64,000 nucleotides of DNA, from positions 6,165 to 70,164 of the forward strand of contig MFEJ01000023.1 in the NCBI GenBank assembly GCA_001779915.1, read 5' to 3'. Position numbers and translations under genes: made by a program. This document shows positions 1 through 60,928 of this stretch, in pieces (positions within the stretch are counted from its first letter, which is position 1; each line of letters starts with the position of its first letter). The stretch comes from Candidatus Doudnabacteria bacterium RIFCSPHIGHO2_01_FULL_45_18. Lineage in GTDB: Bacteria > Patescibacteriota > Doudnabacteria > UBA920 > O2-02-FULL-48-8. The notes beneath the pieces are model-generated. The model was not told the DNA's origin. It was given only the letters and a program-made list of their open reading frames with translations, and did not search any database.

Positions 1-418
1 GATCCCGGCGAATTTAAAAAATGTAGTCTGGCCAGTGGGGCGGCTAGACTATTACACCGAAGGCCTTTTAATTCTAACCAATGACGGTGAGTTAACCCAA
101 CTCCTCACCCACCCATCTAAAAAACATGAAAAAGAATACGAAGTCATTCTGGATAAAGAATTATCCGAAGGCCGAATTGAAAAAATTGAGGGCGGGATGA
201 TGATTGATGGAAAAAAAACCGCGCCATCCGATATCCGCACCCAAGGCACAACTGTCTACATCACCATCCGCGAAGGCATGAACCGCCAGGTGCGAAAAAT
301 GTTTGGCAGTTTAGGCTACTCGGTCCGGAACCTCAAGCGCATCCGCATTGGCAAACTTCGGCTAAATGATTTAGAATCAGGACAATATAAGTTTATTACG
401 AAAAAGGACATAATATAA
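1..418 (+). CDS. RNA pseudouridine synthase, RsuA/RluB family (C-terminal part; 5' end lies outside the window)
   Basis: ORF 35..418 stays open in frame back to position 2. Motif GRLDYYTEGLLILTNDGEL...HPS..HEKEY is typical of the RsuA-family catalytic core. Confidence 0.6.
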   Translation, partial: IPANLKNVVWPVGRLDYYTEGLLILTNDGELTQLLTHPSKKHEKEYEVILDKELSEGRIEKIEGGMMIDGKKTAPSDIRTQGTTVYITIREGMNRQVRKMFGSLGYSVRNLKRIRIGKLRLNDLESGQYKFITKKDII

Positions 419-460: not shown

Positions 461-1696
461 ATGAAACCAAACCAAGAAAAAAAGAATATTGTCATTTTAG
501 GCGGCGGCTACGCCGGAGTCCGCGCAGCTTTGGATTTAAATAACTACTTGCACGATAGTAGTGAATACGAAATCATTCTAATCGACCGCCAAGATTATCA
601 GACTTACTATTCCGGCCTGTATGAAGCGGCTGCCACGGAACATGCGCTCGTGGATGCGAAAAAAGTTAAACGCACGGTGGCCATCCCGTTTACCGAAATT
701 TTCAGCAAAACCCGGGTCAAAGTGTTTAAAGCCTTCATTGACCGGATTGACATCGCGGAGGGAAAAGTGATCACTGATTCGCGGATCATGCCGTTTGACT
801 ATCTGGTGGTCGCCATGGGCTCGGTGGCTGATTTTTATGGCATTCCGAATTTGGATAAATATGGCTTTACGCTCAAAAGCCTGGAAGACGCGATCATGAT
901 CCGCAACCGCGTGGAGGAACTGGTGGTAAAAAAAGATTCCGGACAAATTATTATCGGCGGCGGCGGGTTTGCAGGCGCCGAATTTGCCGGGGAATTACAT
1001 AACCTGCTGAAACACGAATGCCAACAGCACCAGAAAGACCCTAATAATTTTAAAATTTTAGTGGTTGAGGGCGGGTCCAACTTTTTGCCTGGGTTGTCGG
1101 ACAAAGTCTCGGCAATTATCAGCCATCGAACCGCACAAATGGGCATTGAAGCAAAGTTTTCCACCCTGATCACAGAAGCTGGATCCGGATATGTAATTTT
1201 AAATCTGAAGGATCGAATGGAGTGTGATTTGCTGATCTGGACCGGGGGGGTGAAATCCTGCCGCTTGCCGGTGCTCATCAATCTGGAACGTGATAAAAAA
1301 GACCGAACATTGGTGGAGCCAGTGTTAAATCTGAAAAACTACCCGCAGGTGTTTGTGATTGGTGATAACGCCTGCGTAACTGATCCGAAAACCAAAAAGG
1401 CCACAGCCCAAACCGCGCAGGAAGCCATCAACCAAGCCAAGTATACGGCGAAAAATATTTATCGCTCCATCACACAAAAGCCCCTGCTGCCCTATCACGC
1501 CGGCCCTGTTCGGTTTATTATTCCCGTGACTGGTAAATATGCCGTGTTCTATACGCCGAATTTGATCATTGCAGGCTTGGCCGGCTGGGTGGTGCGCAAA
1601 CTTGCCGATCTAAGGTATTTTAGTTCCATCTTGCCAATTTTTACCGCCCTAAAATTCTGGCTATTTGAAAATAAAATCTTCATGAAGAATGATTAG
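461..1696 (+). CDS. ndh: type II NADH dehydrogenase / FAD-dependent pyridine nucleotide-disulfide oxidoreductase
   Basis: Two Rossmann motifs (IVILGGGYAGV and IIIGGGGFAGAEFAGEL); 411 aa, NDH-2-like layout. Confidence 0.65.
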   Translation: MKPNQEKKNIVILGGGYAGVRAALDLNNYLHDSSEYEIILIDRQDYQTYYSGLYEAAATEHALVDAKKVKRTVAIPFTEIFSKTRVKVFKAFIDRIDIAEGKVITDSRIMPFDYLVVAMGSVADFYGIPNLDKYGFTLKSLEDAIMIRNRVEELVVKKDSGQIIIGGGGFAGAEFAGELHNLLKHECQQHQKDPNNFKILVVEGGSNFLPGLSDKVSAIISHRTAQMGIEAKFSTLITEAGSGYVILNLKDRMECDLLIWTGGVKSCRLPVLINLERDKKDRTLVEPVLNLKNYPQVFVIGDNACVTDPKTKKATAQTAQEAINQAKYTAKNIYRSITQKPLLPYHAGPVRFIIPVTGKYAVFYTPNLIIAGLAGWVVRKLADLRYFSSILPIFTALKFWLFENKIFMKND

Positions 1697-1817: not shown

Positions 1818-4658
1818 TTAACTGACTTTCAATTTTTCTTTGAGCACCCTGGCCAAGTATTGGCCGGTATAACTTCGTTTAACCCGCGCGACTTCTTCCG
1901 GCGTACCCACAGCCACCACTTCCCCGCCTTTGTTGCCCCCTTCCGGGCCCAGATCAATCACCCAGTCCGCGGATTTGATGACATCCAAATTATGTTCAAT
2001 CACAAGCACGGTGTTGCCCTTCTCCACTAAACGGCTCAAAACCCTAAGCAATCTTTTCACATCATCAAAATGCAAGCCAGTTGTCGGCTCGTCCAGAATA
2101 TATAAGGTACGGCCGGTTGAAGCGCGGGATAATTCTGAAGATAATTTAATTCGCTGGGCCTCGCCACCGGACAAAGTAGTGGCTTGCTGGCCCAAATGCA
2201 TGTAACCCAAACCCACGAGGGACAAAGTTTCCAGTTTGCGGGCAATCAGCGGGACAGCACGGAAAAACACATGGGCTTCGTCCACAGTCATTTCTAAAAC
2301 ATCCGAAATATTTTTGCCTTTGTAGTGAATGTCCAAGGCTTCCTTGTTATAACGCTTGCCTTTACATTCCTCACATGCCACATACACGTCTGGCAAGAAA
2401 TGCATTTCAATTTTTATAACCCCATCCCCGCCGCAAACCTCGCAGCGGCCACCCTTCACATTAAAGCTAAACCGGCCAGCTTTGTACCCGCGCATTCTAG
2501 CTTCTGGCACTGCCGCAAACAGATCACGGATGTAGGTAAAAACACCAGTATAAGTGGCGGGATTTGATCTGGGAGTGCGGCCAATCGGTGATTGATCAAT
2601 GTTTATAACCTTATCAATATTATCAATGCCTAAAATTTTCTTGTGTTCCCCGGGTGATTCCTTGGCATTATAAAAATATGCAGACAAAGCCTTGGCCAAA
2701 ATTTCGTTAAGCAAGGTTGATTTGCCGGATCCCGACACGCCGGTCAAACACACAAACTTTGACAAGGGAATTTCTACGTCTATATTTTTCAAATTGTTTT
2801 CGGTAGCACCCACGATTTTCAAAGTTTTACTATTGCCCTTTTTTCTGGCTTGCGGCACAGCCACACTTTCCTGACCAGATAAATATTTACCAGTCAAAGA
2901 TTGTTTATCCTTGGCAATCTGGGCGGGCGTGCCCTCGGCCACCACTTCCCCGCCATGCTTGCCCGCTCCGGGACCGATGTCCACCACCCAATCCGATTCC
3001 CAAATCGTTTCTTCGTCATGTTCAACCACAATGACCGTGTTGCCGAGGTCGCGCAGATTTTTCAAAGTCTTAAGCAAGCGTGCATTGTCGCGCTGATGCA
3101 GCCCGATGGAGGGCTCATCCAAAATATACAGAACCCCGGTTAAACCAGAACCGATTTGCGTGGCGAGCCGAATGCGCTGGGCTTCCCCGCCGGACAAAGT
3201 GTCAGCCGAGCGATCTAAGGTTAAGTAATTTAACCCCACATCCAGCAAGAAACTTAACCGCGCCGCGATTTCTTTAAAAATCTGGTGCGCGATTTTCATA
3301 TCTTTTTCGGAAAACTTTTTGGGTAAACTTTCGAAAAACACAACCGCATCATCAATGCTATAATTCGCCACATCCACAATGGATTTATCGTCAATGTGTA
3401 CTGCCAAAAACTCGGGTCGTAAACGCTGGCCTTTGCAAGTGGGACACTTGCTCACCCGCATGTACTGCTCAATCTCGCTGCGCATATAATCTGATTCGGT
3501 TTCTTTATACTTGCGCTCCAAGTTTGGGATCACACCATCAAATGTCGTGTGCCGACCATATCCGGACTCATCTTGAACGTCAATCTTGCGCTCCCCAGTA
3601 CCGTACAGAATCGCGTCCAGAGCTTTTTTAGGTAAATCTCTCACTGGCACATGGACCGAAAAACCATATTCTTTCGTCACAGCTTCCAAAACGCGTGAGT
3701 ACCAAGACAGCCTGGAAGTTGTTTTACTCCATGGACGAATCGCCCCTTCAGCTAAAGTCAATTTTGGATTCGGAATGACCAATTCGTGATCAATTTCCAG
3801 TCTGGTGCCCAAACCCGTACAGTCCGGACAAGCACCGTGCGGTGAATTGAAAGAAAAATTACGCGGATTTAATTCCGGCAAATTCATGTGCCCTTCCGGA
3901 CACGCAAAATTGGACGACAAGAGCATCTCTTCGCCGCCATCTTTCTGAATAATCACGGAGTCGTTGCCTAAATCAAGCGCGGTTTCTAAAGAATCAGCCA
4001 AGCGCGCCCGATCAGAACGATCCAACACAATCCGATCCACCACCACGTCAATCGTATGTTTTTTCTTTTTGTCCACATGAAGCTGCAAAGCTTCGTTCAA
4101 GTCCATGACCGTGCCGTCAAAACGCACGCGCTGGTAGCCGGATTTTTTGGCTTCTTCCAGCAAATGTTTGTGCTCACCCTTCATATCTTTAACCAAAGGG
4201 GCTAAGATTACAAATTTCGTGCCTGTCGGCCAAGCGGAGATCTGATCCACCATTTGGGTCACAGACTGGCCTATAATTTTCTTGCCGCAAACCGGACAAT
4301 GCGGCACACCCACGCGCGCGTAAAGCAACCGCAAGTAGTCGTAAATTTCCGTCACAGTTCCCACGGTTGATCTGGGATTATGAGAAGCGGATTTCTGGTC
4401 AATGGAAATTGCCGGGGATAAGCCTTCAATTTTGTCCACATCCGGTTTGTCCATGAGACCCAAAAACTGTCTGGCATAAGCTGACAAGGATTCCACATAC
4501 CGACGCTGACCTTCGGCATAGATCGTATCAAACGCGAGAGAAGATTTACCGCTACCCGAAAGACCCGTGATCACCACGAGTTTGTTTCTTGGGATATCCA
4601 AGTTGATGTTTTTGAGGTTATGAACCCTGGCGCCCCGAATAACGATTTTTTCTTGCAT
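1818..4658 (-). CDS. uvrA: excinuclease ABC subunit A
   Basis: 946 aa; two ABC ATPase modules ([20 protein letters not shown]), zinc-finger cysteines, LSGGEAQR signature twice. Confidence 0.95.
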
Positions 4659-4744
4659 AAAGAGGTCAGTCTCGGATTCTAAAATTAGCGACGACTATAT
4701 AGCCCTGTTTATAAGGGCTGTAATTAAGCCAACATAGTATATAT

Positions 4745-4792: not shown

Positions 4793-5191
4793 TCAGTAAA
4801 GCAAAGATCGGAAGTCCTCTACTCCATGCGGACGCTTATAGATGGTCAAATCCTCACCTTCGGGATAAGGACGAACTGTTCCCACTACCACATATAAGCA
4901 ATCGAGGCCGGACCTCCATCGGGATATTCCTGTCTGTTGGTGAAGCGTGATTCCGGGTGCGTCCCACTCAATCTCTTCGACTCGAAACACTCTCGGTCGC
5001 TTGAGCCGACCCATCCGCGAGCCGGAAGCCACCCAGACCCGACTGTCCGGAAACGGCTTGAGTCTATTGAAAGGAATCTTGTGGTTAGCGCGCTTGCAAG
5101 CTATGTCCCTATACTCAAAGTGACCATTGTATACGATGCGCCAGAGCCAAGGATACTCCTTCTCCCACTTTGCCCATTCTGAATATTCCAT
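4793..5191 (-). CDS. hypothetical protein (Trp-rich N-terminus); own terminator; no recognisable domain
   Basis: 132-aa ORF with a downstream terminator and moderately elevated GC; member of a three-gene minus-strand cluster between uvrA and uvrC. Confidence 0.4.
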   Translation of the reverse strand: MEYSEWAKWEKEYPWLWRIVYNGHFEYRDIACKRANHKIPFNRLKPFPDSRVWVASGSRMGRLKRPRVFRVEEIEWDAPGITLHQQTGISRWRSGLDCLYVVVGTVRPYPEGEDLTIYKRPHGVEDFRSLLY

Positions 5192-5306
5192 ACCTGATCC
5201 TCCTGGATCTTTGAGCCATCACGGCAACTGGTAAATGTCTTGCAGCAAAATTACCGCAGGACAGCTCAATATACTATGATCTCATCCTCACCGTCAATAA
5301 CAAATC

Positions 5307-5337
5307 GCATGGAGCATTTTCTGCGCGGCCGAGCAAG
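5307..5337. repeat. 31-bp direct repeat copy A (TTTTCTGCGCGGCCGAGCAAGATTGGACTCA)
   Basis: Matches 5875..5905 with one mismatch (26 bp perfect). A GC-rich repeat in AT-rich intergenic DNA, bracketing gene 5352..5840. Confidence 0.8.
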
Positions 5338-5351
5338 ATTGGACTCACTTG

Positions 5352-5840
5352 CTATTCTAGCAAATTCATTTTCGCGGAAAAAATGCTGATATCACTTTTC
5401 AACTTCAGTTCTTCAATCAAATCTCTGATGTCTTGTGAGATTTCAAATGGACTTAAAAAACAACTCTCTTTGATTTGAGTATAGCCATTCCTGACCAAGA
5501 AGCGTCGGAACATATCACGGGCATTGTGTTTCTCTTCCGGGATATCAAAAATTATCAAAGTCGAAAAGCCGTCCGTCCTTGTTTTCTTCGTAACTGCCTT
5601 GCTTCTTAAAAACTTAGCTTTCTTTGTAATCACAAATACATGGCCATTCGCTGTCTTGGTTTTTTTCACTAAACCATGTTTTTCAAATCTTTTAAGCTTC
5701 TTAAGGTACCCTGACCGAGTTAAATTTATTCCATTCATCTGACCGTACGACTTGAAAACCAATCCCTCAGGTTCCACTTTGCTGATCATCTTAAATAATT
5801 CCCAGGTCAATCTTGCCGCTGCTCTTCTTGAGCTCATCAT
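5352..5840 (-). CDS. winged-helix DNA-binding protein with C-terminal Cas2-like (PaaX_C-like) domain
   Basis: The N-terminal GINLTRSGYLKKLKRFEKHGLV segment is wHTH-like. The C-terminal IIFDIPEEKHNARDMFRRFLVRNGYTQIKESCFLSPF matches the Cas2/PaaX_C pattern. A paralog lies at 53929..54495. Confidence 0.55.
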   Translation of the reverse strand: MMSSRRAAARLTWELFKMISKVEPEGLVFKSYGQMNGINLTRSGYLKKLKRFEKHGLVKKTKTANGHVFVITKKAKFLRSKAVTKKTRTDGFSTLIIFDIPEEKHNARDMFRRFLVRNGYTQIKESCFLSPFEISQDIRDLIEELKLKSDISIFSAKMNLLE

Positions 5841-8731: not shown

Positions 8732-10474
8732 ATGCGCAATCTTTGGCTGATTATTAAAAATTTTTTCCGTCATCTTTGGCAAGGATTAAGGCTGGTTCCA
8801 TATCTCCGCCGCCAGCAAATTCCACACGTCTTGGAGAACTTTACCAAACGGGAGAGAAACGTCGTCATTGCAAGCCTGCTCGTCATAATTTTGTCTAGCG
8901 GGTTTTTAATTAACGAATTATTTGCGGATGATGGTCTGGGGCCAAACTACGGCGGCGTCTTAACTGAAGGCTTGGTTGGTCAGCCACAATACATTAACCC
9001 CGTGCTTGCTCCCGCCAGTGGCGTGGATTCGGATTTAAGCCGCGTAGTCTATGCCCAGTTGCTGAAATTTGACCAAAACCAAAACCTGCAACCAGATTTG
9101 GCAGCCAATCTGCCTGAAGTCAGCGCTGACCGCAAAACATATACTCTCAAATTGCGTAACAATCTCCAATGGCAGGACGGCAAACCACTAACCGCAGATG
9201 ACGTGGTGTTTACCATCCAAACTATTCAAAATGCCGAATACGAATCTCCGCTGCGGGCCAACTGGACCCGGGTCAAAGTTCAAAAGCTGGATGATGTAAC
9301 GCTCTCGTTCCAAATTCGGGAAGCATCAGCTGGATTTGCGTTAAACTTCACCTTGGGAATTATTCCCAAGCATGTCTGGGGTGAATTGACCCCGCAAAAT
9401 TTTCGGCTATCCGACTATAATCTGAAGGCCGTGGGTTCCGGACCGTTCATGATTACGGAAATTAAAAAAACTTCTGATGGCACCATTAAGTCCGTCAATC
9501 TTAAAAGCCATGCGGACTACTTTGCGGGAGAACCTTTTATCAACCGGCTGACTTTCCGATTCTATGACAGCTATGATAATCTGCTGAATGCATATCAGGG
9601 CAAAGAAATTCAGAGTCTGGGGTTTGTGCCATTTGATAAACAGGCGTTTCTGACCGCCAATGACAAGGTTAACCAATATCAAGCTAATCTTCCGCAATAC
9701 GAAGCGGTATTCTTCAATCTAAGCAAAGCGCCGGTGTCTGAAAAAGCTGTGCGGCAGGCCCTGTGGCTAATGACAGATCGAAGTAAAATCATTGATGAAG
9801 TTTACAAGGGTAATGCTGCGGCTGCTTTCGGTCCGATTTTGCCGGGCAGTCTTGGATACAACGCCAGTATCGAACAAGCAGCGCACTACGACTTAACTGA
9901 AGCCGCGAAAATTCTAGACAAAGCCGGCTGGGTGCTCGGCCCTGGCGCGACCGTGCGCATGAAAAATAAAAAACCTCTGGAATTTACCCTGGCCACGAGC
10001 GGTATGCAAATGCTCAATGTCAAAACCGCGCAGATTCTGCAGAGTCAATGGGAACAGCTGGGCGCGAAAGTGCATCTCAATATCGTCAGTTCCAAAGATC
10101 TGGATCAGAATTACATTCGGTCGCGCAATTTTGATGCGATTCTCGTAGCGGAAAATGTCGGCGCGGATCCGGATCCATATCCGTTCTGGCACTCAAGTCA
10201 ATCGCATGACCCAGGGTTGAACTTGTCTGGATTTAACAACTCGGAAGTAGATAAACTCATTACGGAAGCTAGACTTACTGCGGACGAGAATGTGCGCATA
10301 AAAAATTATGCGCGCTTCCAGGAAATTATTAACGAGCAGTTGCCAGCCATCTTCCTGGTCCGCTCGCTGTATATCTATAACACGCCCAAAAAAATGCTGG
10401 ATGTGAATCTAAGCAACATTGTGGCTCCCTCGGAACGATTCGCTGACATCAGCCACTGGTATTTTAGCGATTAG
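8732..10474 (+). CDS. ABC transporter substrate-binding protein, family 5 (OppA/DppA-like), solo
   Basis: 580 aa with an N-terminal TM anchor and SBP_bac_5-like sequence; no adjacent permease genes. Confidence 0.7.
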   Translation: MRNLWLIIKNFFRHLWQGLRLVPYLRRQQIPHVLENFTKRERNVVIASLLVIILSSGFLINELFADDGLGPNYGGVLTEGLVGQPQYINPVLAPASGVDSDLSRVVYAQLLKFDQNQNLQPDLAANLPEVSADRKTYTLKLRNNLQWQDGKPLTADDVVFTIQTIQNAEYESPLRANWTRVKVQKLDDVTLSFQIREASAGFALNFTLGIIPKHVWGELTPQNFRLSDYNLKAVGSGPFMITEIKKTSDGTIKSVNLKSHADYFAGEPFINRLTFRFYDSYDNLLNAYQGKEIQSLGFVPFDKQAFLTANDKVNQYQANLPQYEAVFFNLSKAPVSEKAVRQALWLMTDRSKIIDEVYKGNAAAAFGPILPGSLGYNASIEQAAHYDLTEAAKILDKAGWVLGPGATVRMKNKKPLEFTLATSGMQMLNVKTAQILQSQWEQLGAKVHLNIVSSKDLDQNYIRSRNFDAILVAENVGADPDPYPFWHSSQSHDPGLNLSGFNNSEVDKLITEARLTADENVRIKNYARFQEIINEQLPAIFLVRSLYIYNTPKKMLDVNLSNIVAPSERFADISHWYFSD

Positions 10475-10535
10475 CGATATACAATAAGTTACTCGGGTAC
10501 GTGGCGGAACTGGCATTATATTGTGTGCAGTTGGC

Positions 10536-10622
10536 GGGCGTGTGGTGGAATTGGCATACACGTACGCTTCAGGAGCGTATAGGCGAAAGCCTGTGAGAGT
10601 TCAAATCTCTCCACGCCCACCA
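10536..10622 (+). tRNA. tRNA-Leu (anticodon CAG)
   Basis: 7-bp acceptor stem GGGCGTG/CACGCCC; D-arm GTGGAATTGGCATACAC; anticodon loop TTCAGGA; long variable arm; T-arm GAGAGTTCAAATCTCTC; encoded CCA. Confidence 0.85.
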
Positions 10623-10755
10623 ACTGCCCATAATGCGTCCCGCCAAAGGCGGGAAAATCCCTGCCTGTCGGCAGGCAGGTCTCCGTACCCACCAGAATAG
10701 AGAAATCTTTAAGGCCCCAAAAGGGCTATTTTTATTGGCTAAAAACGCTTAACTA

Positions 10756-10784
10756 TTGACAAAACCCCTAAAAAGGCGTATACT
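10756..10784 (+). promoter_or_regulatory. consensus sigma70-type promoter TTGACA-N17-TATACT
   Basis: Perfect -35 hexamer, 17-nt spacer, near-consensus -10, about 60 nt upstream of the GC-rich islet gene. Confidence 0.45.
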
Positions 10785-10844
10785 TATATGTTTTGTACAC
10801 TTCACTTCCGAAGTCACAAACGGGCCCAAAGGAGGGCTTAACAG

Positions 10845-11342
10845 ATGAGTATGGAACTCGAGAACTTGATGCGTGGCGCAATCGCTCGAAGCGGACAACT
10901 GCTGGAAGTAATCCTGGTCAACGTGATTTTCAACATTCTCGCCGTGACCATGGGACTGTTCGGTGTGTACCTCGTGGCAGTCGTGCGAACGCCGCAAGCC
11001 TACATGTTTGCGCCGTACGTGATCGCCGGTTCGATGGCACTGGCTGCCAAGGCCGGATTTCTCCTCCATCGCAAATGGAGCGAATACGCGAAAGTGGAAC
11101 GGGTCAGCGAACAGCACGCTGGCGCATTCGTGAACCCGTCGGTCAACGCAAGAAACGAAAGCAGGGTGTCGGTAGGCATCGCCAACTTGATGGCTGTGGC
11201 CGCGATCGCGCTCCCAGTGCTGATCTACAGCTACATGCAGATTTGGACGCAGTCGCCGTCAATGATCGGCGTCCTGCAGGTCCTCCCGTCGCTCGGCATT
11301 ACCATCCTCAGCGTTTGGGCCTGGATTGACTCGGCCCGATAG
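10845..11342 (+). CDS. hypothetical integral membrane protein (about 4 TM) in GC-rich islet
   Basis: RBS AAGGAGGG upstream of the ATG; about 60% GC against a 45% background. Confidence 0.5.
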   Translation: MSMELENLMRGAIARSGQLLEVILVNVIFNILAVTMGLFGVYLVAVVRTPQAYMFAPYVIAGSMALAAKAGFLLHRKWSEYAKVERVSEQHAGAFVNPSVNARNESRVSVGIANLMAVAAIALPVLIYSYMQIWTQSPSMIGVLQVLPSLGITILSVWAWIDSAR

Positions 11343-11382
11343 CTATCCTTTCATCAACACGAGTTTTCACAGGAGCACAGAC

Positions 11383-12189
11383 ATGAACGGACTGATTCGA
11401 TTTGCCGCCTTTCTCGTCGTCACCTCGTTCGCAACGATCGCCACGGCGCAGGAACCGCAGGCCGAACCGCGCGAGCGGTTCACGATCATGGGCGGTGGCG
11501 GGCACAGAACCCTCACCGACTCCTCGTGGGTCGGGTCTGGCGGACCCACCAGCATGACCGACGTGAAGTTCGCCGGCTCAACCGGGGAACTGACGGGCTA
11601 TGCCTGGATCACGAAGAACGCCTTCGTGAAAGGATCCATTGAACGCGGATCCTTAACTCCAGACCGGATGATTTTTAACGGTCAGGGAACTGACGCGTTG
11701 AGATATCAGCGCCACCAGGCGCTGATCGGCTGGGCATTCACCTACGGGTCAATCGCCGGGGGCGTTGATCAGGTTTCTTTCGAACGAAACCAAGCTGGCC
11801 CGTACTCCTGGTCAGCTTGGCGGACGATCACCCGGACCGAAATGTTCGGTCCCGTGCTGGAACTCAATTTGGGATCGACGTTCGGCCGGTTCTATGTCGG
11901 CGAACAGTTCCAGTACAATCCGTTGATGCCGGGAACGTTCCGGCTGATCTCCGGACAAGATGGACTCGCACCGTCCCTGGACCAAGTCCAGAGCGGTCAC
12001 AACTGGTCAGCCTTCGAGCTCGCGATCAAAAGCGAGCTGGAGATCTACCGCGGCGTGGGTCTGACCATGAAGTGGGACATCAGCCGACGTTCCGAAACGG
12101 ACGTCGACACATTTCCCGGCCAAGAAGTGAACCGCCAGAAAGACAGCCAGCGATTCATGGTCGGCGCGATCTATCGATTCGAAAAGTAA
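11383..12189 (+). CDS. secreted beta-barrel-like protein (outer-membrane-protein-like) in GC-rich islet
   Basis: RBS AGGAG 7 nt from the ATG; signal peptide MNGLIRFAAFLVVTSFATIATAQEP; alternating amphipathic beta-strand pattern; C-terminal ...GAIYRFEK. Confidence 0.45.
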   Translation: MNGLIRFAAFLVVTSFATIATAQEPQAEPRERFTIMGGGGHRTLTDSSWVGSGGPTSMTDVKFAGSTGELTGYAWITKNAFVKGSIERGSLTPDRMIFNGQGTDALRYQRHQALIGWAFTYGSIAGGVDQVSFERNQAGPYSWSAWRTITRTEMFGPVLELNLGSTFGRFYVGEQFQYNPLMPGTFRLISGQDGLAPSLDQVQSGHNWSAFELAIKSELEIYRGVGLTMKWDISRRSETDVDTFPGQEVNRQKDSQRFMVGAIYRFEK

Positions 12190-12227
12190 CCATTTTCTTC
12201 GTCTCTCCTCAAGCAAGGGGATAAAAA

Positions 12228-12258
12228 GAGCAGTACGTGCAATACGCTGCTCTTTTTT
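12228..12258 (+). terminator. rho-independent terminator closing the islet
   Basis: Stem GAGCAG...CTGCTC followed by TTTTTT. Confidence 0.5.
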
Positions 12259-12314
12259 CTTGCCCAAATTTTATTTGAATTTTGAATTTTAATTTTTGAA
12301 TTTTCTAGTTAAGG

Positions 12315-12343
12315 TTGACAAGAGGCCCATTCGGGTGTATACT
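12315..12343 (+). promoter_or_regulatory. consensus promoter TTGACA-N17-TATACT upstream of rnj, with a leader of about 180 nt
   Basis: Same hexamers as the promoter at 10756. Confidence 0.45.
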
Positions 12344-12525
12344 ATATATACAGTGAATCTCTTGGAAATCTAAATAATCCGTTCGTTAACAGAAAATAGT
12401 CTGTAATCTTGTATTGACTATTTTGTGTTAATTGAACTTTCAGGCCGTGGGTTTAGCCCCGTTTGAAGTTCTATCTATGTAATTATTTCGTAAAGTAACA
12501 CAGTTACGATGAAGGATTTTTTGCG

Positions 12526-14301
12526 ATGATTTTTCGCAAACCAAACCTGCCTACCGGCAGGCAGGCGCAACCAGTTGCTACGCGCGAAAAAGAAAAAGTA
12601 GCGACACCGCAGACCAAAACCGACAACAAAGCGGCGCTCAAGATTATCCCCTTGGGTGGAATTGAGGAAGTCGGAGAAAACATGACTGTACTCGAGTACG
12701 GTGATGATATTCTTGTCATTGACATGGGACTCGGATTTCCAGACGAGACTATGCCGGGAATTGATTACATCATCCCGAACACCAAATATCTGGAAGATAA
12801 CAAAAAGCGCATCAAAGGCGTGATTATCACTCACGGACATTTGGACCACATTGGCGCCATCCCCTACATCATGCCGAAAATTGGCGACCCGCCGATTTAT
12901 ACCATGAAGTTAACCGGGGAACTGATTAAAAAACGTTTAGAGGAATTTCATCTGCTTGGCCGCTCCCAAATTCACGAACTGAACAAAGATGATGTTCTGA
13001 CTTTGGGGAATTTCCGCATCCGATTCTTCCGAATCAACCACAATATTCCGGATGGCGTGGGTTTGGCGATCAATACGCCAACCGGGCTTCTGATTTACGC
13101 CACGGACTGGAAATTTGACCATACACCTGTAGATGGCCGACCGACGGAATTTGATAAATTGGCCAAATTCGGCGGCGAAGGTGTGGCGCTGCTCATGTCT
13201 GACTCCACCAACGCGGAAAAACCGGGTTATTCCATGTCCGAAAAAACTTTGGGTGATACGATTGATCGAATTATGTCTGATGCGAAAGGCCGCGTAATTT
13301 TCGCGACCTTCTCTACCCTCATTTCCCGTGTCCAGCAAGTGATTGACGCGGCTTATAAATCCAATCGCAAGATTGTGATCACTGGCCGCTCGCTTGTGAA
13401 TAACGTGGAAATTTGTCTGGCCACCAATTATCTAAAAATGCCTGCCAAAGGCATGATCATAAAAATGGAACAGGCCAAGAAACTTCCTGACAATCAAGTC
13501 GTGATCTTAACCACTGGTTCCCAAGGCGAAGAAGCCTCGGCTCTAGCGCGCATCGCCAGAAGCGAACACAAAACGATTGAGATCAAAAAGGGCGACACCT
13601 GCGTGGTGTCTGCTTCCCCGATTCCAGGTAATGAACGAGCCGTGTCGGGAATTTTGTCCAACCTGGCGCGCTTAGGCGCCAAGGTTTTGTACCAAAAAAT
13701 CTTAGACATCCACACTTCCGGACACGCGTATCAGGAAGATTTGAAGCTCATGATTTCTCTGACCAAACCGAAAAACTTCATGCCGATTCACGGCGAGCAC
13801 CACATGTTAGTGGCTCACGCGAATCTCGCGCACGATGTCGGCGTCCCGGATGAAAATATTTTCACCCTGGATAACGGCCAGATGCTTGAGATGTCAGGAT
13901 CAGGAGTCCGCATCCTAGAAGCGAAAATCCCCACCGGCTACGTCTATGTGGACGGACTGGGCGTTGGTGACGTCGGCGAGGTGGTTTTACGCGATCGACA
14001 GGTTATGAGCAAAGATGGCATGTTTGTCATCATCATGACCATTGACCGCAAAACTAGTAAACTTACCCAAGCGCCGGATATTATTTCCAGAGGCTTTATC
14101 TACATGAAAGGCTCGGAAGATTTACTCAAAGAAGTCAAACACGAAGTCCGCAAAGTTGTGGAAAGCAAAGGAAAAAATGGCGGCATGCGTGAACCCAACT
14201 GGGCCTTTGTCCGCTCGGAAGTTCGGGATCAAATCGGCGAATTTCTGTTCCAGAGAACGGAACGAAGACCGATGGTCCTACCAGTTGTGATTGAAGTATA
14301 A
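12526..14301 (+). CDS. rnj: ribonuclease J (metallo-beta-lactamase / beta-CASP)
   Basis: LKIIPLGGIEEVGENMTVLEY start and the HxHxDH motif (ITHGHLDHIGAIP); 591 aa. The roughly 40-aa N-terminal extension contains an in-frame family B palindrome. Confidence 0.85.
   Translation: MIFRKPNLPTGRQAQPVATREKEKVATPQTKTDNKAALKIIPLGGIEEVGENMTVLEYGDDILVIDMGLGFPDETMPGIDYIIPNTKYLEDNKKRIKGVIITHGHLDHIGAIPYIMPKIGDPPIYTMKLTGELIKKRLEEFHLLGRSQIHELNKDDVLTLGNFRIRFFRINHNIPDGVGLAINTPTGLLIYATDWKFDHTPVDGRPTEFDKLAKFGGEGVALLMSDSTNAEKPGYSMSEKTLGDTIDRIMSDAKGRVIFATFSTLISRVQQVIDAAYKSNRKIVITGRSLVNNVEICLATNYLKMPAKGMIIKMEQAKKLPDNQVVILTTGSQGEEASALARIARSEHKTIEIKKGDTCVVSASPIPGNERAVSGILSNLARLGAKVLYQKILDIHTSGHAYQEDLKLMISLTKPKNFMPIHGEHHMLVAHANLAHDVGVPDENIFTLDNGQMLEMSGSGVRILEAKIPTGYVYVDGLGVGDVGEVVLRDRQVMSKDGMFVIIMTIDRKTSKLTQAPDIISRGFIYMKGSEDLLKEVKHEVRKVVESKGKNGGMREPNWAFVRSEVRDQIGEFLFQRTERRPMVLPVVIEV
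12547..12566 (+). repeat. family B GC palindrome CCTGCCTACCGGCAGGCAGG, in-frame in the rnj N-terminal extension
   Basis: Translated PTGRQA; same motif at 10659, 8338, 42393 and 60169. Confidence 0.7.
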
Positions 14302-59482: not shown

Positions 59483-60928
59483 ATGATCAAAATAAGTACG
59501 AACAAAACCATTCAGACTGATCTAATCATTCTGCCCTTGTTCGAAAAAGACCAATCACCAATCGCGCTACCACAGGCAGTGCTTTTGGATTTCAAAAATA
59601 CTTTAGGGGCAACCCAAATGGTTTACTCCAATCAAGGCCAGAAGCGGATTTTGCTTGTAGGGCTCGGCCACAAGCAAAAGTTTGGACCCCAAGCCTGGCG
59701 GCAAGCCATACACAGCATCATGTCTTATATCAGAACCTTGGATGTGGCCCAAGCATCATTGGTTCTGCCCAAAGTTTCTAAACTTTCACCAGTGAAGTTC
59801 ATGGAACTGACGGCTTTTGGCGTAATTTTCAGCCACTACCATTTTGACGAATATAAACAAGAAAAAACTCCAAGAAAACTTCAAAGCCTGGAACTAATTA
59901 CCAAAATAAGCGGCAAAAAAATCAATCAGGCCATCGAACACGGCATCATTATCGGCCTGGCCGCCAATGAAGCCCGAAGTCTTGCCAACCATCCAGGCAA
60001 CTTGGTCACCCCAAGCCATTTAGCCAAATACGCGCAGGAGTTAGCGCGAAAATATAAATTCGCCTGTAAAATTTTAGGCCCTGCCGAAATCAAGAAAGAA
60101 AAAATGGGCCTGCTTGCCGGTGTGGCTAAGGGTTCGGATGAACCAGCTAGATTTATAGTGCTCGAATACCTGCCTGCCGGCAGGCAGGCGGAAAATAAAA
60201 AACTTGAACCAATTGTCTTAATCGGCAAGGGGCTGACTTTTGATTCCGGCGGCATATCTATTAAGCCGGCGGATCGCATGGAAGAAATGAAATATGACAT
60301 GTGTGGCGCCGCTGACGTCCTGGCAATTTTTGAAGCCGTCAGTCAACTGAAATTACCAATCCACCTTATTGGTTTAATTCCCTCGACCGAGAACTTAATT
60401 TCTGGCCAAGCCACCAAGCCGGGCGACATTTTAATTTCCAAATCAGGAGTCAGTGTGGAGATTGTTAACACCGATGCCGAAGGCCGCCTGGTGCTGGCGG
60501 ATGCAATTGATTACGCCAGAGCGCACTTTCAACCAAAGCTCATTATTGATTACGCCACCTTAACCGGCGCCGTGCTTGTGGCCTTAGGAGATCAGCTAGC
60601 CGGATTTTTTGCCAATACCAAATCGTATGACGCCGGATTTAAAAAAGCGGCGGCGACAGCTGCGGAAAATTTTTGGCCTCTCCCCATGCCAGAAGAATAT
60701 AAAGAACATATTAAAAGCCAAGTGGCTGATATCCGAAACGTGGGGGAAAAAGGATTGGCCGGAGCAACAGCCGGCGCCATGTTTTTAGAACATTTCATCG
60801 GCACAACCCCTTGGATCCACTTAGATATCGCCGGCACGGCCTGGACCATGCGGCCTAAACCATCGCTGGCGGTTGGGGCCACGGCCTGGGGGGTTTATCT
60901 AACCGTGGACTTTTTGCGCAACCTTTAG
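59483..60928 (+). CDS. pepA: leucyl aminopeptidase (M17)
   Basis: NTDAEGRL motif; 481 aa. Confidence 0.85.
   Translation: MIKISTNKTIQTDLIILPLFEKDQSPIALPQAVLLDFKNTLGATQMVYSNQGQKRILLVGLGHKQKFGPQAWRQAIHSIMSYIRTLDVAQASLVLPKVSKLSPVKFMELTAFGVIFSHYHFDEYKQEKTPRKLQSLELITKISGKKINQAIEHGIIIGLAANEARSLANHPGNLVTPSHLAKYAQELARKYKFACKILGPAEIKKEKMGLLAGVAKGSDEPARFIVLEYLPAGRQAENKKLEPIVLIGKGLTFDSGGISIKPADRMEEMKYDMCGAADVLAIFEAVSQLKLPIHLIGLIPSTENLISGQATKPGDILISKSGVSVEIVNTDAEGRLVLADAIDYARAHFQPKLIIDYATLTGAVLVALGDQLAGFFANTKSYDAGFKKAAATAAENFWPLPMPEEYKEHIKSQVADIRNVGEKGLAGATAGAMFLEHFIGTTPWIHLDIAGTAWTMRPKPSLAVGATAWGVYLTVDFLRNL
60169..60188 (+). repeat. family B palindrome CCTGCCTGCCGGCAGGCAGG in-frame inside pepA
   Basis: Translated LPAGRQA; perfect 20-bp palindrome. 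Confidence 0.7.

Follow-up and report, generated by a model that had tools for sequence, protein, structure and literature searches.

A GC-rich two-gene islet lies between the tRNA-Leu(CAG) and RNase J genes in a 64-kb stretch (the window) of a Candidatus Doudnabacteria metagenome-assembled genome (MAG) of the RIFCSPHIGHO2 series. On balance, the islet is probably a genuine accessory cassette from a lineage-restricted, fast-diversifying pool of envelope-protein cassettes that share one slot and are rich in GC at third codon positions (GC3). Genes of the pool would be transcribed from paralogs of the RNase J promoter, and they encode exported or membrane proteins. In the window, ORF1 encodes a predicted membrane protein, and ORF2 encodes a putatively exported protein predicted with moderate confidence to be an outer-membrane-type β-barrel. 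The cassette is neither simply native nor simply foreign. Positions refer to the window unless another contig is named.

Loci from species-representative genomes were fetched with RNase J as the anchor (61 loci, from Doudnabacteria or from such contigs placed in other bins; fetched contigs carry L numbers). The order solute-binding protein (SBP), tRNA-Leu(CAG), RNase J is retained in ~45 of the 61, and the tRNA lies inside the gap in 44 of the 45 syntenic loci. Many sites are "empty," with ~300–540 bp separating the SBP stop codon from the start of RNase J, which supports the original prediction that the islet is an insertion relative to sister genomes. Filled sites hold 0.7–5.6 kb of unrelated cargo, and ~11 kb in L072. 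Past the tRNA, homology to relatives stops near 10654 and resumes at ~12307 in the RNase J upstream region; the insert therefore spans roughly 10655–12306 (~1.65 kb). Positions 12307–12551 align upstream of RNase J at empty and filled sites (conserved with L025, an empty site, and with L063, L012, L072, and L008), and this conservation at both alike marks the RNase J promoter and leader as native. Across Doudnabacteria, the region that separates tRNA-Leu(CAG) from the native RNase J promoter is a variable slot. Its other cargo includes TSP3-repeat, DUF2339, GDYXXLXY, and lipoprotein-like proteins and an F420-ligase-like enzyme. ORF1 and ORF2 are encoded in none of the 61 loci (tblastn E ≤ 1e-3). 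Homologs at the same locus in sister genomes had been taken as the mark of a native gene; ORF1 homologs do occur there in two other lineages and in none of the 61 representatives, so the islet is a sub-clade accessory element.

The reported GC-rich islet downstream of tRNA-Leu was confirmed. GC content per 200-nt window is 0.54–0.665 over 10800–12199, 0.43–0.50 in the left flank, and 0.34–0.43 in the right flank. The 1-kb bin 11001–12000 (GC 0.589) tops all 64 bins, and only in the islet do 300-nt windows stay at GC ≥ 0.56 over a long unbroken stretch (window mean 0.46, SD 0.048). A second GC-rich patch at 63.1–64 kb is merely the start of an ordinary PurD-like gene. The two cassette genes together (10845–12189) are ~58% GC. 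The islet had been said to start 170 bp past the tRNA; the promoter lies 134 nt and ORF1 222 nt past the tRNA end, and GC rises near 10800–10850. A codon-usage comparison with the contig, suggested at the outset, sets the islet apart. Native GC3 is 0.487 ± 0.063 with a maximum of 0.576 (48 native ORFs), and the islet ORFs stand at z ~4 (Table 1). C-ending two-fold codons reach 0.76 in the islet versus a native median of 0.37 and maximum of 0.515. The GC excess lies at third codon positions and is therefore a codon-usage signature; amino-acid composition was ruled out as its source. GC skew across the islet is ~0.

The promoter, strong ribosome-binding sites (RBSs), and terminator that the original prediction assigned to the islet are all present. 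AGGAGG lies 9 nt ahead of the ORF1 ATG (10845), and AGGAG lies 7 nt ahead of the ORF2 ATG (11383). The 90-nt terminator segment folds at −21.2 kcal/mol (z = −3.1). The post-tRNA segment folds at −43.1 kcal/mol (z = −3.0), and its stem was found by the terminator scan. The missing integrase and tRNA 3′ attachment (att) repeat noted earlier were verified. Only ORF1 and ORF2 are plausible genes within 10623–12525, with no integrase ORF; the other listed ORFs overlap them in other frames. No recombinase domain was found in either protein using Pfam. No partial tRNA copy or att repeat was detected on either strand of 10623–12560, where Smith-Waterman scores were no better than those of shuffles. 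No Rfam match besides the tRNA was found in 10300–12700. The combination that defines classical islands, deviant composition plus presence or absence at a conserved site, is found here (GC3 z ~4; empty sites).

GC3-rich cargo recurs in relatives, at 0.72–0.93 overall versus contig backgrounds of 0.38–0.63 (Table 1). Intermediate values are found in L007 (0.589) and in a barrel fragment in L016 (0.598). Signal peptides or transmembrane (TM) segments are found in nearly all proteins of the cassettes, and intergenic cassette spacers are AT-rich (GC 0.37–0.47). The extended cassette promoter, TTGACAAAACCnCnAAAAAGGnGTATA, has a single copy in the window at ≤3 mismatches; the 824 kb of loci contain 13 approximate copies, every one on the + strand. 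Six copies precede RNase J by 190–380 nt (L008, L018, L038, L051, L053, L055), and the other seven immediately precede GC-rich genes (window, L012, L013, L019, L063, L072, L071). Twelve of the 13 lie between tRNA-Leu and RNase J; the thirteenth, in L071, belongs to a separate slot next to a tRNA-Gln gene. By alignment, the copy in L008 is the orthologous promoter of RNase J, and the cassette promoters are therefore RNase J promoter paralogs.

Cassette proteins diverge fast. L069 and L071 are 86–87% identical over the RBS and signal peptide and again just past the stop codon, and the ~720 nt for the mature barrel between these flanks cannot be aligned; the variable part has thus been replaced between conserved flanks. 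Between the window and L072, identity is 86% for RNase J, 66% for SBP, and 41% for ORF1, and the barrels give no BLASTP match. ORF1 has a GC3 of 0.74 in both although synonymous divergence (dS) is saturated.

ORF1 has three relatives at 59–64% identity in an index of 5.8e9 proteins. The contig of relative P0003 encodes UvrC, SecG, SBP, and an ORF1 homolog (62% identity) in the synteny of the window; a second gene follows at the same 41-nt spacing but encodes a different, 157-aa protein. Relative P0004 is alone on the 1-kb contig L007. L072, found by a metagenome scan, has an SBP 66% identical to that of the window and tRNA-Leu, then 3 kb of native-GC membrane genes, and further on an ORF1 homolog (41%), a 285-aa signal-peptide barrel protein (L072b), and a 549-aa secreted protein; its RNase J (86%) is ~11 kb from the tRNA. 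dN/dS of ORF1 versus homologs is 0.19–0.33 with saturated dS, which indicates purifying selection. AlphaFold2 (AF2) gives four long helices with a mean predicted local distance difference test (pLDDT) score of 68. No Foldseek match was found at E ≤ 1e-3. Matches to Pfam DUF4383 (E = 0.009) and NCBIfam were rejected as chance level.

Selection, biased conversion, or import that recurs from a pool not yet sampled may underlie the GC3 bias. One explanation is that GC-richness was made or kept inside Doudnabacteria, by codon or mRNA selection or by GC-biased gene conversion, in an old family private to the lineage. This is a possibility of somewhat less than even probability. The excess recurs in every lineage despite saturated dS and lies in coding regions, and spacers and leaders stay AT-rich. 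The replacement of the mature barrel between conserved flanks is direct evidence of recombination, and the GC-richer host L019 has a still higher cassette GC3 (0.93 vs 0.63). An outside donor was not found among cluster representatives, viral contigs, phages, and plasmids. However, the natively exported SBP is not GC-rich, gene conversion ought to enrich the homology-providing flanks too, and GC skew across the islet is ~0. Partial amelioration seems to have occurred in L007 (0.59) and the L016 fragment (0.60), and the bias is not universally maintained. Translational selection of the kind seen in highly expressed genes was rejected: native S6, SSB, and EF-P lack the bias (GC3 0.50–0.57).

Recent import from a high-GC diderm is poorly supported and unlikely. 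Under this explanation, a tRNA-Leu-targeting element brought an inner-membrane gene and an outer-membrane protein (OMP) gene, then lost its integrase and att sites while its GC stayed unameliorated. Import does account for the codon usage, which is unlike that of any native gene (GC3 0.73–0.74 vs 0.49), and for the OMP-type fold. The C-terminal residue of relatives P0007 and L072b is Phe, as in diderm OMPs. Empty sites in many relatives also fit, as do the partial tRNA-Leu 3′ copies, tRNA inversions, and IS1595 transposase found at the locus in relatives. Slot cargo of very different GC, AT-rich in L024, shows uptake of foreign DNA, and islands gained by horizontal gene transfer are common in Patescibacteria (PMC12455944). 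Import fails because no donor is found, the promoter is of Doudnabacteria type, and GC3-rich homologs with saturated synonymous sites recur. The best matches expected in high-GC diderms did not appear: ORF2 has one relative among 1.84e9 cluster representatives and finds only itself in the 5.8e9-protein index, ORF1 has three relatives, and every readable context of these relatives is Doudnabacteria-type or AT-richer. No match was found in viral contigs, phage genomes, or plasmids, and a phage, plasmid, or viral origin was rejected. GC3 of ORF1 is 0.74 in the window and L072 despite saturated dS, the cassette promoter is paralogous to that of host RNase J, spacers are AT-rich, and neither integrase nor att repeat is found in the window. 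The "old, decayed" insertion first proposed does not fit: both ORFs are intact, the promoter and terminator are present, and ORF1 has the low dN/dS given above.

In ORF2, residues 1–22 (nt 11383–11448) form a predicted signal peptide with a hydrophobic N-terminal segment and a putative cleavage motif of ATA followed by Q. An upstream TTG at 11326 was rejected as the start in favor of the ATG at 11383, which has a Shine-Dalgarno site. The mature part is predicted to be a ~250-aa all-beta meander of 10–12 strands. In the AF2 model, a signal helix is followed by ~12 long antiparallel strands (pLDDT 63.8, predicted TM-score 0.62). Foldseek returned 102 matches in PDB at E ≤ 1e-3, and each of the top 50 listed is an integral outer-membrane barrel. 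Neighbors are OmpT (E = 4e-7), Pla, OpcA (TMt 0.63, rmsd 5.4), FadL, autotransporter beta-domains, and a Legionella porin. Top matches have TM-scores of 0.5–0.63, and identity to structural matches is 8–13%. The OMP resemblance described for the second gene is supported at the fold level. ORF2 is aromatic-rich and Cys-free with 12% Gly, and hydrophobicity alternates strongly in strands 148–167, 206–222, and 225–241. ORF2 ends in ...GAIYRFEK and its relative P0006 in ...YDVPFKR (Phe at −3); P0007 (...HVGF) and L072b (...NIKF) end in Phe.

In an exhaustive scan of the cluster representatives, P0006 was the one relative of ORF2 (27% identity, E = 4.8e-12, colinear over the full length). A barrel-family profile adds P0007 (contig L071), L072b, a 287-aa protein in L012, and the L016 fragment. 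The L012 and L016 members lie in the hotspot, the latter just upstream of RNase J. The L012 barrel bridges two subfamilies (E = 8e-8 to P0006, 4e-4 to L072b). P0006 aligns to Pfam OMP_b-brl (PF13505) over profile positions 2–173 of 175 (E = 1.2e-5) at 26.0 bits, below the gathering threshold of 28.7 bits. The same family is the best or only Pfam match of the L012 barrel (20.0 bits), L072b (18.3 bits), and P0007 (13.3 bits), also below threshold. The barrel-family profile found nothing among PDB sequences. ORF2 probably works like, and descends from, small outer-membrane barrels; ORF2 itself reaches no curated family.

ORF2 might instead be a soluble or wall-associated secreted all-beta protein with a generic resemblance to OMPs, which we regard as improbable. 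Among its predicted strands, those near the N terminus show no clearly hydrophobic face. Confidence in the AF2 model is moderate, and of five models two failed. No curated OMP family was matched above threshold, and the host presumably has no outer membrane. On the other side stand the structural matches, all integral outer-membrane barrels among the top 50 listed of the 102 at E ≤ 1e-3, the alignment of nearly the whole OMP_b-brl profile to P0006, and the strong alternation and composition described above.

The islet is stably assembled. Positions 10475–12526, both junctions included, are 100% identical in six fetched contigs (L001–L006) from several samples and assemblers. ORF2 is present on at least 12 contigs (ENA, JGI, and Logan assemblies of different samples), all 10 contigs with an identical RNase J have both islet genes, and the window cassette shows no polymorphism across samples. 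The assembly or compositional anomaly once considered is not borne out: despite the sharp compositional step at either edge, a chimera or mis-binned foreign fragment is effectively refuted and has a vanishingly small probability, given these identical junctions, flanks syntenic on both sides with ~45 related genomes, and a cassette promoter of the host lineage.

Table 1. Coordinates and composition of features in the window and in related contigs.
Sequence	Feature	Position	Strand	Evidence or composition
Window	SBP_bac_5 (family-5 solute-binding protein), left anchor gene	8732..10474	+	Pfam E = 4.7e-75; SBP–tRNA-Leu–RNase J synteny, ~45 loci
Window	tRNA-Leu(CAG), left border of variable hotspot	10536..10622	+	ARAGORN; Rfam tRNA 54.7 bits
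Window	Post-tRNA hairpins (10638–10654), 20-nt palindrome (10660–10679), terminator-like stem (10713–10727) and T-run	10638..10727	+	
Window	Cassette promoter TTGACA-N17-TATACT; extended motif TTGACAAAACCnCnAAAAAGGnGTATA includes conserved spacer	10756..10784	+	11/12 consensus positions
Window	ORF1, 165-aa membrane protein, four predicted helices	10845..11342	+	RBS AGGAGG 10830–10835; GC3 0.741
Window	ORF2, 268-aa putative exported protein, predicted OMP-type beta-barrel	11383..12189	+	RBS AGGAG 11371–11375; GC3 0.725
Window	Intrinsic cassette terminator, 11-bp outer stem 12223–12233/12247–12257, then U6	12223..12263	+	Inverted repeat; fold
Window	AT-rich junction with TTTTGAA-type short direct repeats, right edge of insert	12270..12306	.	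Direct-repeat search
Window	Native RNase J promoter (12315–12343) and conserved leader of ~180 nt with hairpin (12386–12431)	12315..12525	+	Promoter scan; inverted repeat at hairpin
Window	RNase J, right anchor gene	12526..14301	+	Pfam RNase_J_b_CASP E = 4.7e-44
L012	Barrel			GC3 0.767; contig background 0.38
L013	382-aa signal-peptide protein			GC3 0.759; contig background 0.44
L019	278-aa and 506-aa proteins			GC3 0.932 and 0.771; contig background 0.63
L063	176-aa TM protein			GC3 0.812; contig background 0.46
L072	Three genes			GC3 0.74–0.81; contig background 0.39–0.62
L071	Two genes			GC3 0.785 each; neighboring DnaX-like gene 0.53
L069	P0006			GC3 0.804; non-gene GC 0.47
L071	Leader RNA copies	327–440, 1162–1267		
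L063	Leader RNA copy	4980–5086		
L072	Leader RNA copies	10743–10855, 11850–11956		
L019	Leader RNA copy	4623–4721		
L013	Leader RNA copy	4130–4233		
L069	Leader RNA copy	1–91		

In relatives (L071, L063, L013, L072, L019, L069), an AT-rich leader RNA of ~110 nt follows the promoter. Its P2/P3 stem is 91.8% paired with both-side changes in 8 of 17 pairs; 0 of 500 shuffles were as good, and slid controls were 32–44% paired. The P2 3′ arm alternatively pairs downstream in a hairpin of −15 to −22 kcal/mol, with a U-tract in four leaders. The predicted pairings give the leader an attenuator architecture. No Rfam family was found at E ≤ 1 over six loci, save tRNAs and chance-level leader matches elsewhere. 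With a covariance model, extra copies were found ahead of the second and third cassette genes, at 48.7 bits in L071 and 38.8 bits in L072, and none in the window; the window cassette therefore has its promoter with a short 62-nt leader only. The RNase J leader (12344–12525) is also found in L025, L063, L012, L072, and L008. It has invariant blocks, for example CTTGTGTTAA and GGTTnAGCC, a 16-bp hairpin at 12386–12431, and no Rfam match, and is possibly autoregulatory.

In relatives, partial tRNA-Leu 3′ copies lie 30–40 nt past the intact tRNA in L012 (1133–1195), L020 (5430–5493), L019 (2579–2626), L055 (2766–2810), and L051 (337–376), directly after the tRNA and not distal to the cargo. Six loci (L008, L009, L010, L014, L018, L019) carry tRNA-Leu in the orientation opposite to that of SBP and RNase J. 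These copies and inversions are recombination footprints, with no integrase in view. In the window, a 22-nt stretch just 5′ of tRNA-Leu (10495–10516) is a 95% match to the 5′ end of tRNA-Leu genes in L020, L023, L032, L035, and L058, and may be a relic of a former tRNA copy. In L012 (Doudnabacteria RIFCSPHIGHO2_02_FULL_42_25), an IS1595-family transposase with a zinc ribbon lies in the same hotspot at 1496–2290 (DDE_Tnp_IS1595 E = 5.8e-13). In L024, the closest relative by RNase J (94%), an AT-rich ORF without a Pfam match lies in the slot at 4860–5738 (GC3 0.31 vs 0.57 background); the hotspot therefore also takes cargo of opposite compositional bias. In L071, a second cassette slot adjoins a minus-strand tRNA-Gln (91–165) and comprises a promoter, leader, 208-aa gene, leader, and barrel P0007; a DnaX-like gene comes next instead of RNase J. 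More than one chromosomal slot therefore exists for such cassettes.

The 20-nt palindrome CCTGCCTnnCGGCAGGCAGG has three copies in the window (10660–10679, 12546–12565, 60169–60188) versus 0 expected. Two copies flank the islet, and two are in frame, in the RNase J N-terminus (LPTGRQA) and in an M17 aminopeptidase (LPAGRQA). It is missing from every other species' locus examined. The islet-bracketing copies were rejected as att-like sites; the palindrome is a species-specific dispersed repeat, with its third copy in the aminopeptidase gene. Contigs L008, L013, L016, L062, and L068 have Doudnabacteria-type RNase J and synteny. The MAGs that contain them are labeled as GC-rich diderm groups: Methylomirabilota, Verrucomicrobiia, Binatia, Acidobacteriaceae, and Deltaproteobacteria. 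These labels probably reflect mis-binning; abundance that co-varies with such organisms is a less likely cause.

In the proposed mechanism, the near-consensus sigma-70-type promoter at 10756 would drive a bicistronic mRNA ending at the terminator (12223–12263). ORF1 would enter the cytoplasmic membrane as a four-helix protein. ORF2 would be exported by Sec, its signal peptide cut after ATA, and would fold into an outer-membrane-type β-barrel at the cell surface. The barrel may act as a fast-diversifying envelope component, such as an adhesin, pore, or receptor. It might reside in the organism's own envelope or in the outer membrane of a partner cell, and ORF1 and ORF2 may be functionally linked.

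Several points weigh against the cassette reading and the barrel assignment. Dyad amphipathicity is clear only in C-terminal strands of ORF2 and is weak N-terminally. ORF2 itself has no Pfam, NCBIfam, or PDB-sequence match, and none to OMP_b-brl at E ≤ 10. AF2 confidence is only moderate (pLDDT 64 for ORF2 and 68 for ORF1), from alignments of 3–4 sequences. Adjacency is what ties ORF1 to ORF2; the partner of ORF1 differs in the P0003 contig, and L007 has ORF1 by itself. Presence in few lineages also fits repeated gain, and the cassette pool does not account for the persistent GC3 bias. Members of the Candidate Phyla Radiation (CPR) are reported to lack an outer membrane, outer-membrane-linked systems, TonB-ExbBD, and PilQ, with no Gram-negative envelope (PMC6744442), which makes it genuinely puzzling where an OMP-type barrel would go.

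The locus resembles tRNA-adjacent genomic islands, which are frequent in Patescibacteria (PMC12455944), in its tRNA neighbor, deviant GC and codon usage, patchy presence, and cargo that varies among relatives; relatives add one IS1595 transposase and several partial tRNA copies. Unlike such islands, the window has no integrase, att duplication, or mobility gene and an insert of only 1.65 kb. The cassette also differs in its promoter, which comes from a neighboring host gene, in homologous cargo confined to one phylum-level lineage, and in having no donor found. ORF2 resembles small diderm outer-membrane barrels (OMP_b-brl PF13505; the omptins OmpT and Pla; OpcA) in its predicted signal peptide, predicted 10–12-strand meander, aromatic-rich and Cys-free composition, C-terminal Y-R-F motif, and purely outer-membrane-barrel top structural matches. 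It differs in scoring below every curated-family threshold, in its 8–13% identity, and in two residues past the C-terminal Phe; presumably, neither an outer membrane nor the barrel assembly machinery (BAM) exists in the host lineage.

Hypervariable surface loci, such as neisserial OMP loci and Borrelia vls, change by allelic replacement or gene conversion, and Borrelia vls cassettes are GC-richer than the genome. L069 and L071 are alike in a conserved leader and signal-peptide module, a conserved 3′ flank, and a replaced central coding part. The cassettes share very fast protein divergence relative to flanks and deviant composition, but no silent archive, flanking repeats, or GC skew was seen, and the window cassette is monomorphic across samples. 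The leaders of relatives match attenuators and riboswitches in their ~110-nt length, covarying stems, mutually exclusive anti-terminator and terminator pairings with a U-tract, and position between promoter and ORF. They differ in matching no Rfam family at E ≤ 1 and in having a copy before each cassette ORF, and the window has no such leader. Integron gene cassettes, which are promoterless ORFs bearing 3′ attC sites, differ from the window cassette, which has no integrase (IntI) and has its own promoter and an ordinary terminator. Integron attC sites differ from the structured elements of relatives, which are 5′ of ORFs and have terminator U-tracts; the window has none.

These results carry a caution for island callers: GC can deviate with no detectable donor, and the deviation can last across copies with saturated synonymous sites. 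A persistent GC3 bias challenges the logic that GC-anomalous DNA is recently imported. CPR/Patescibacteria are thought to be single-membrane episymbionts that attach to host cells and take resources from them. A broader proposal, quite unlikely to hold in full, is that Doudnabacteria keep a private family of Sec-exported OMP-type barrels, with small membrane partners, as interchangeable, rapidly diversified cassettes of a single chromosomal slot. These would run from duplicated RNase J promoters and be attenuator-gated in most lineages. The barrels would act at the partner-cell interface, for instance as a pore or adhesin in the outer membrane of a diderm host, or would mark an unrecognized outer layer, and the GC3 excess would come from locus-specific recombination or selection and not from foreign origin. 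Lineage-specific, fast-evolving barrels of predicted OMP fold are concrete candidates for the host-cell interface that can be expressed and localized; the defined hotspot that houses them has a promoter type of its own and, in relatives, a newly recognized structured leader RNA.

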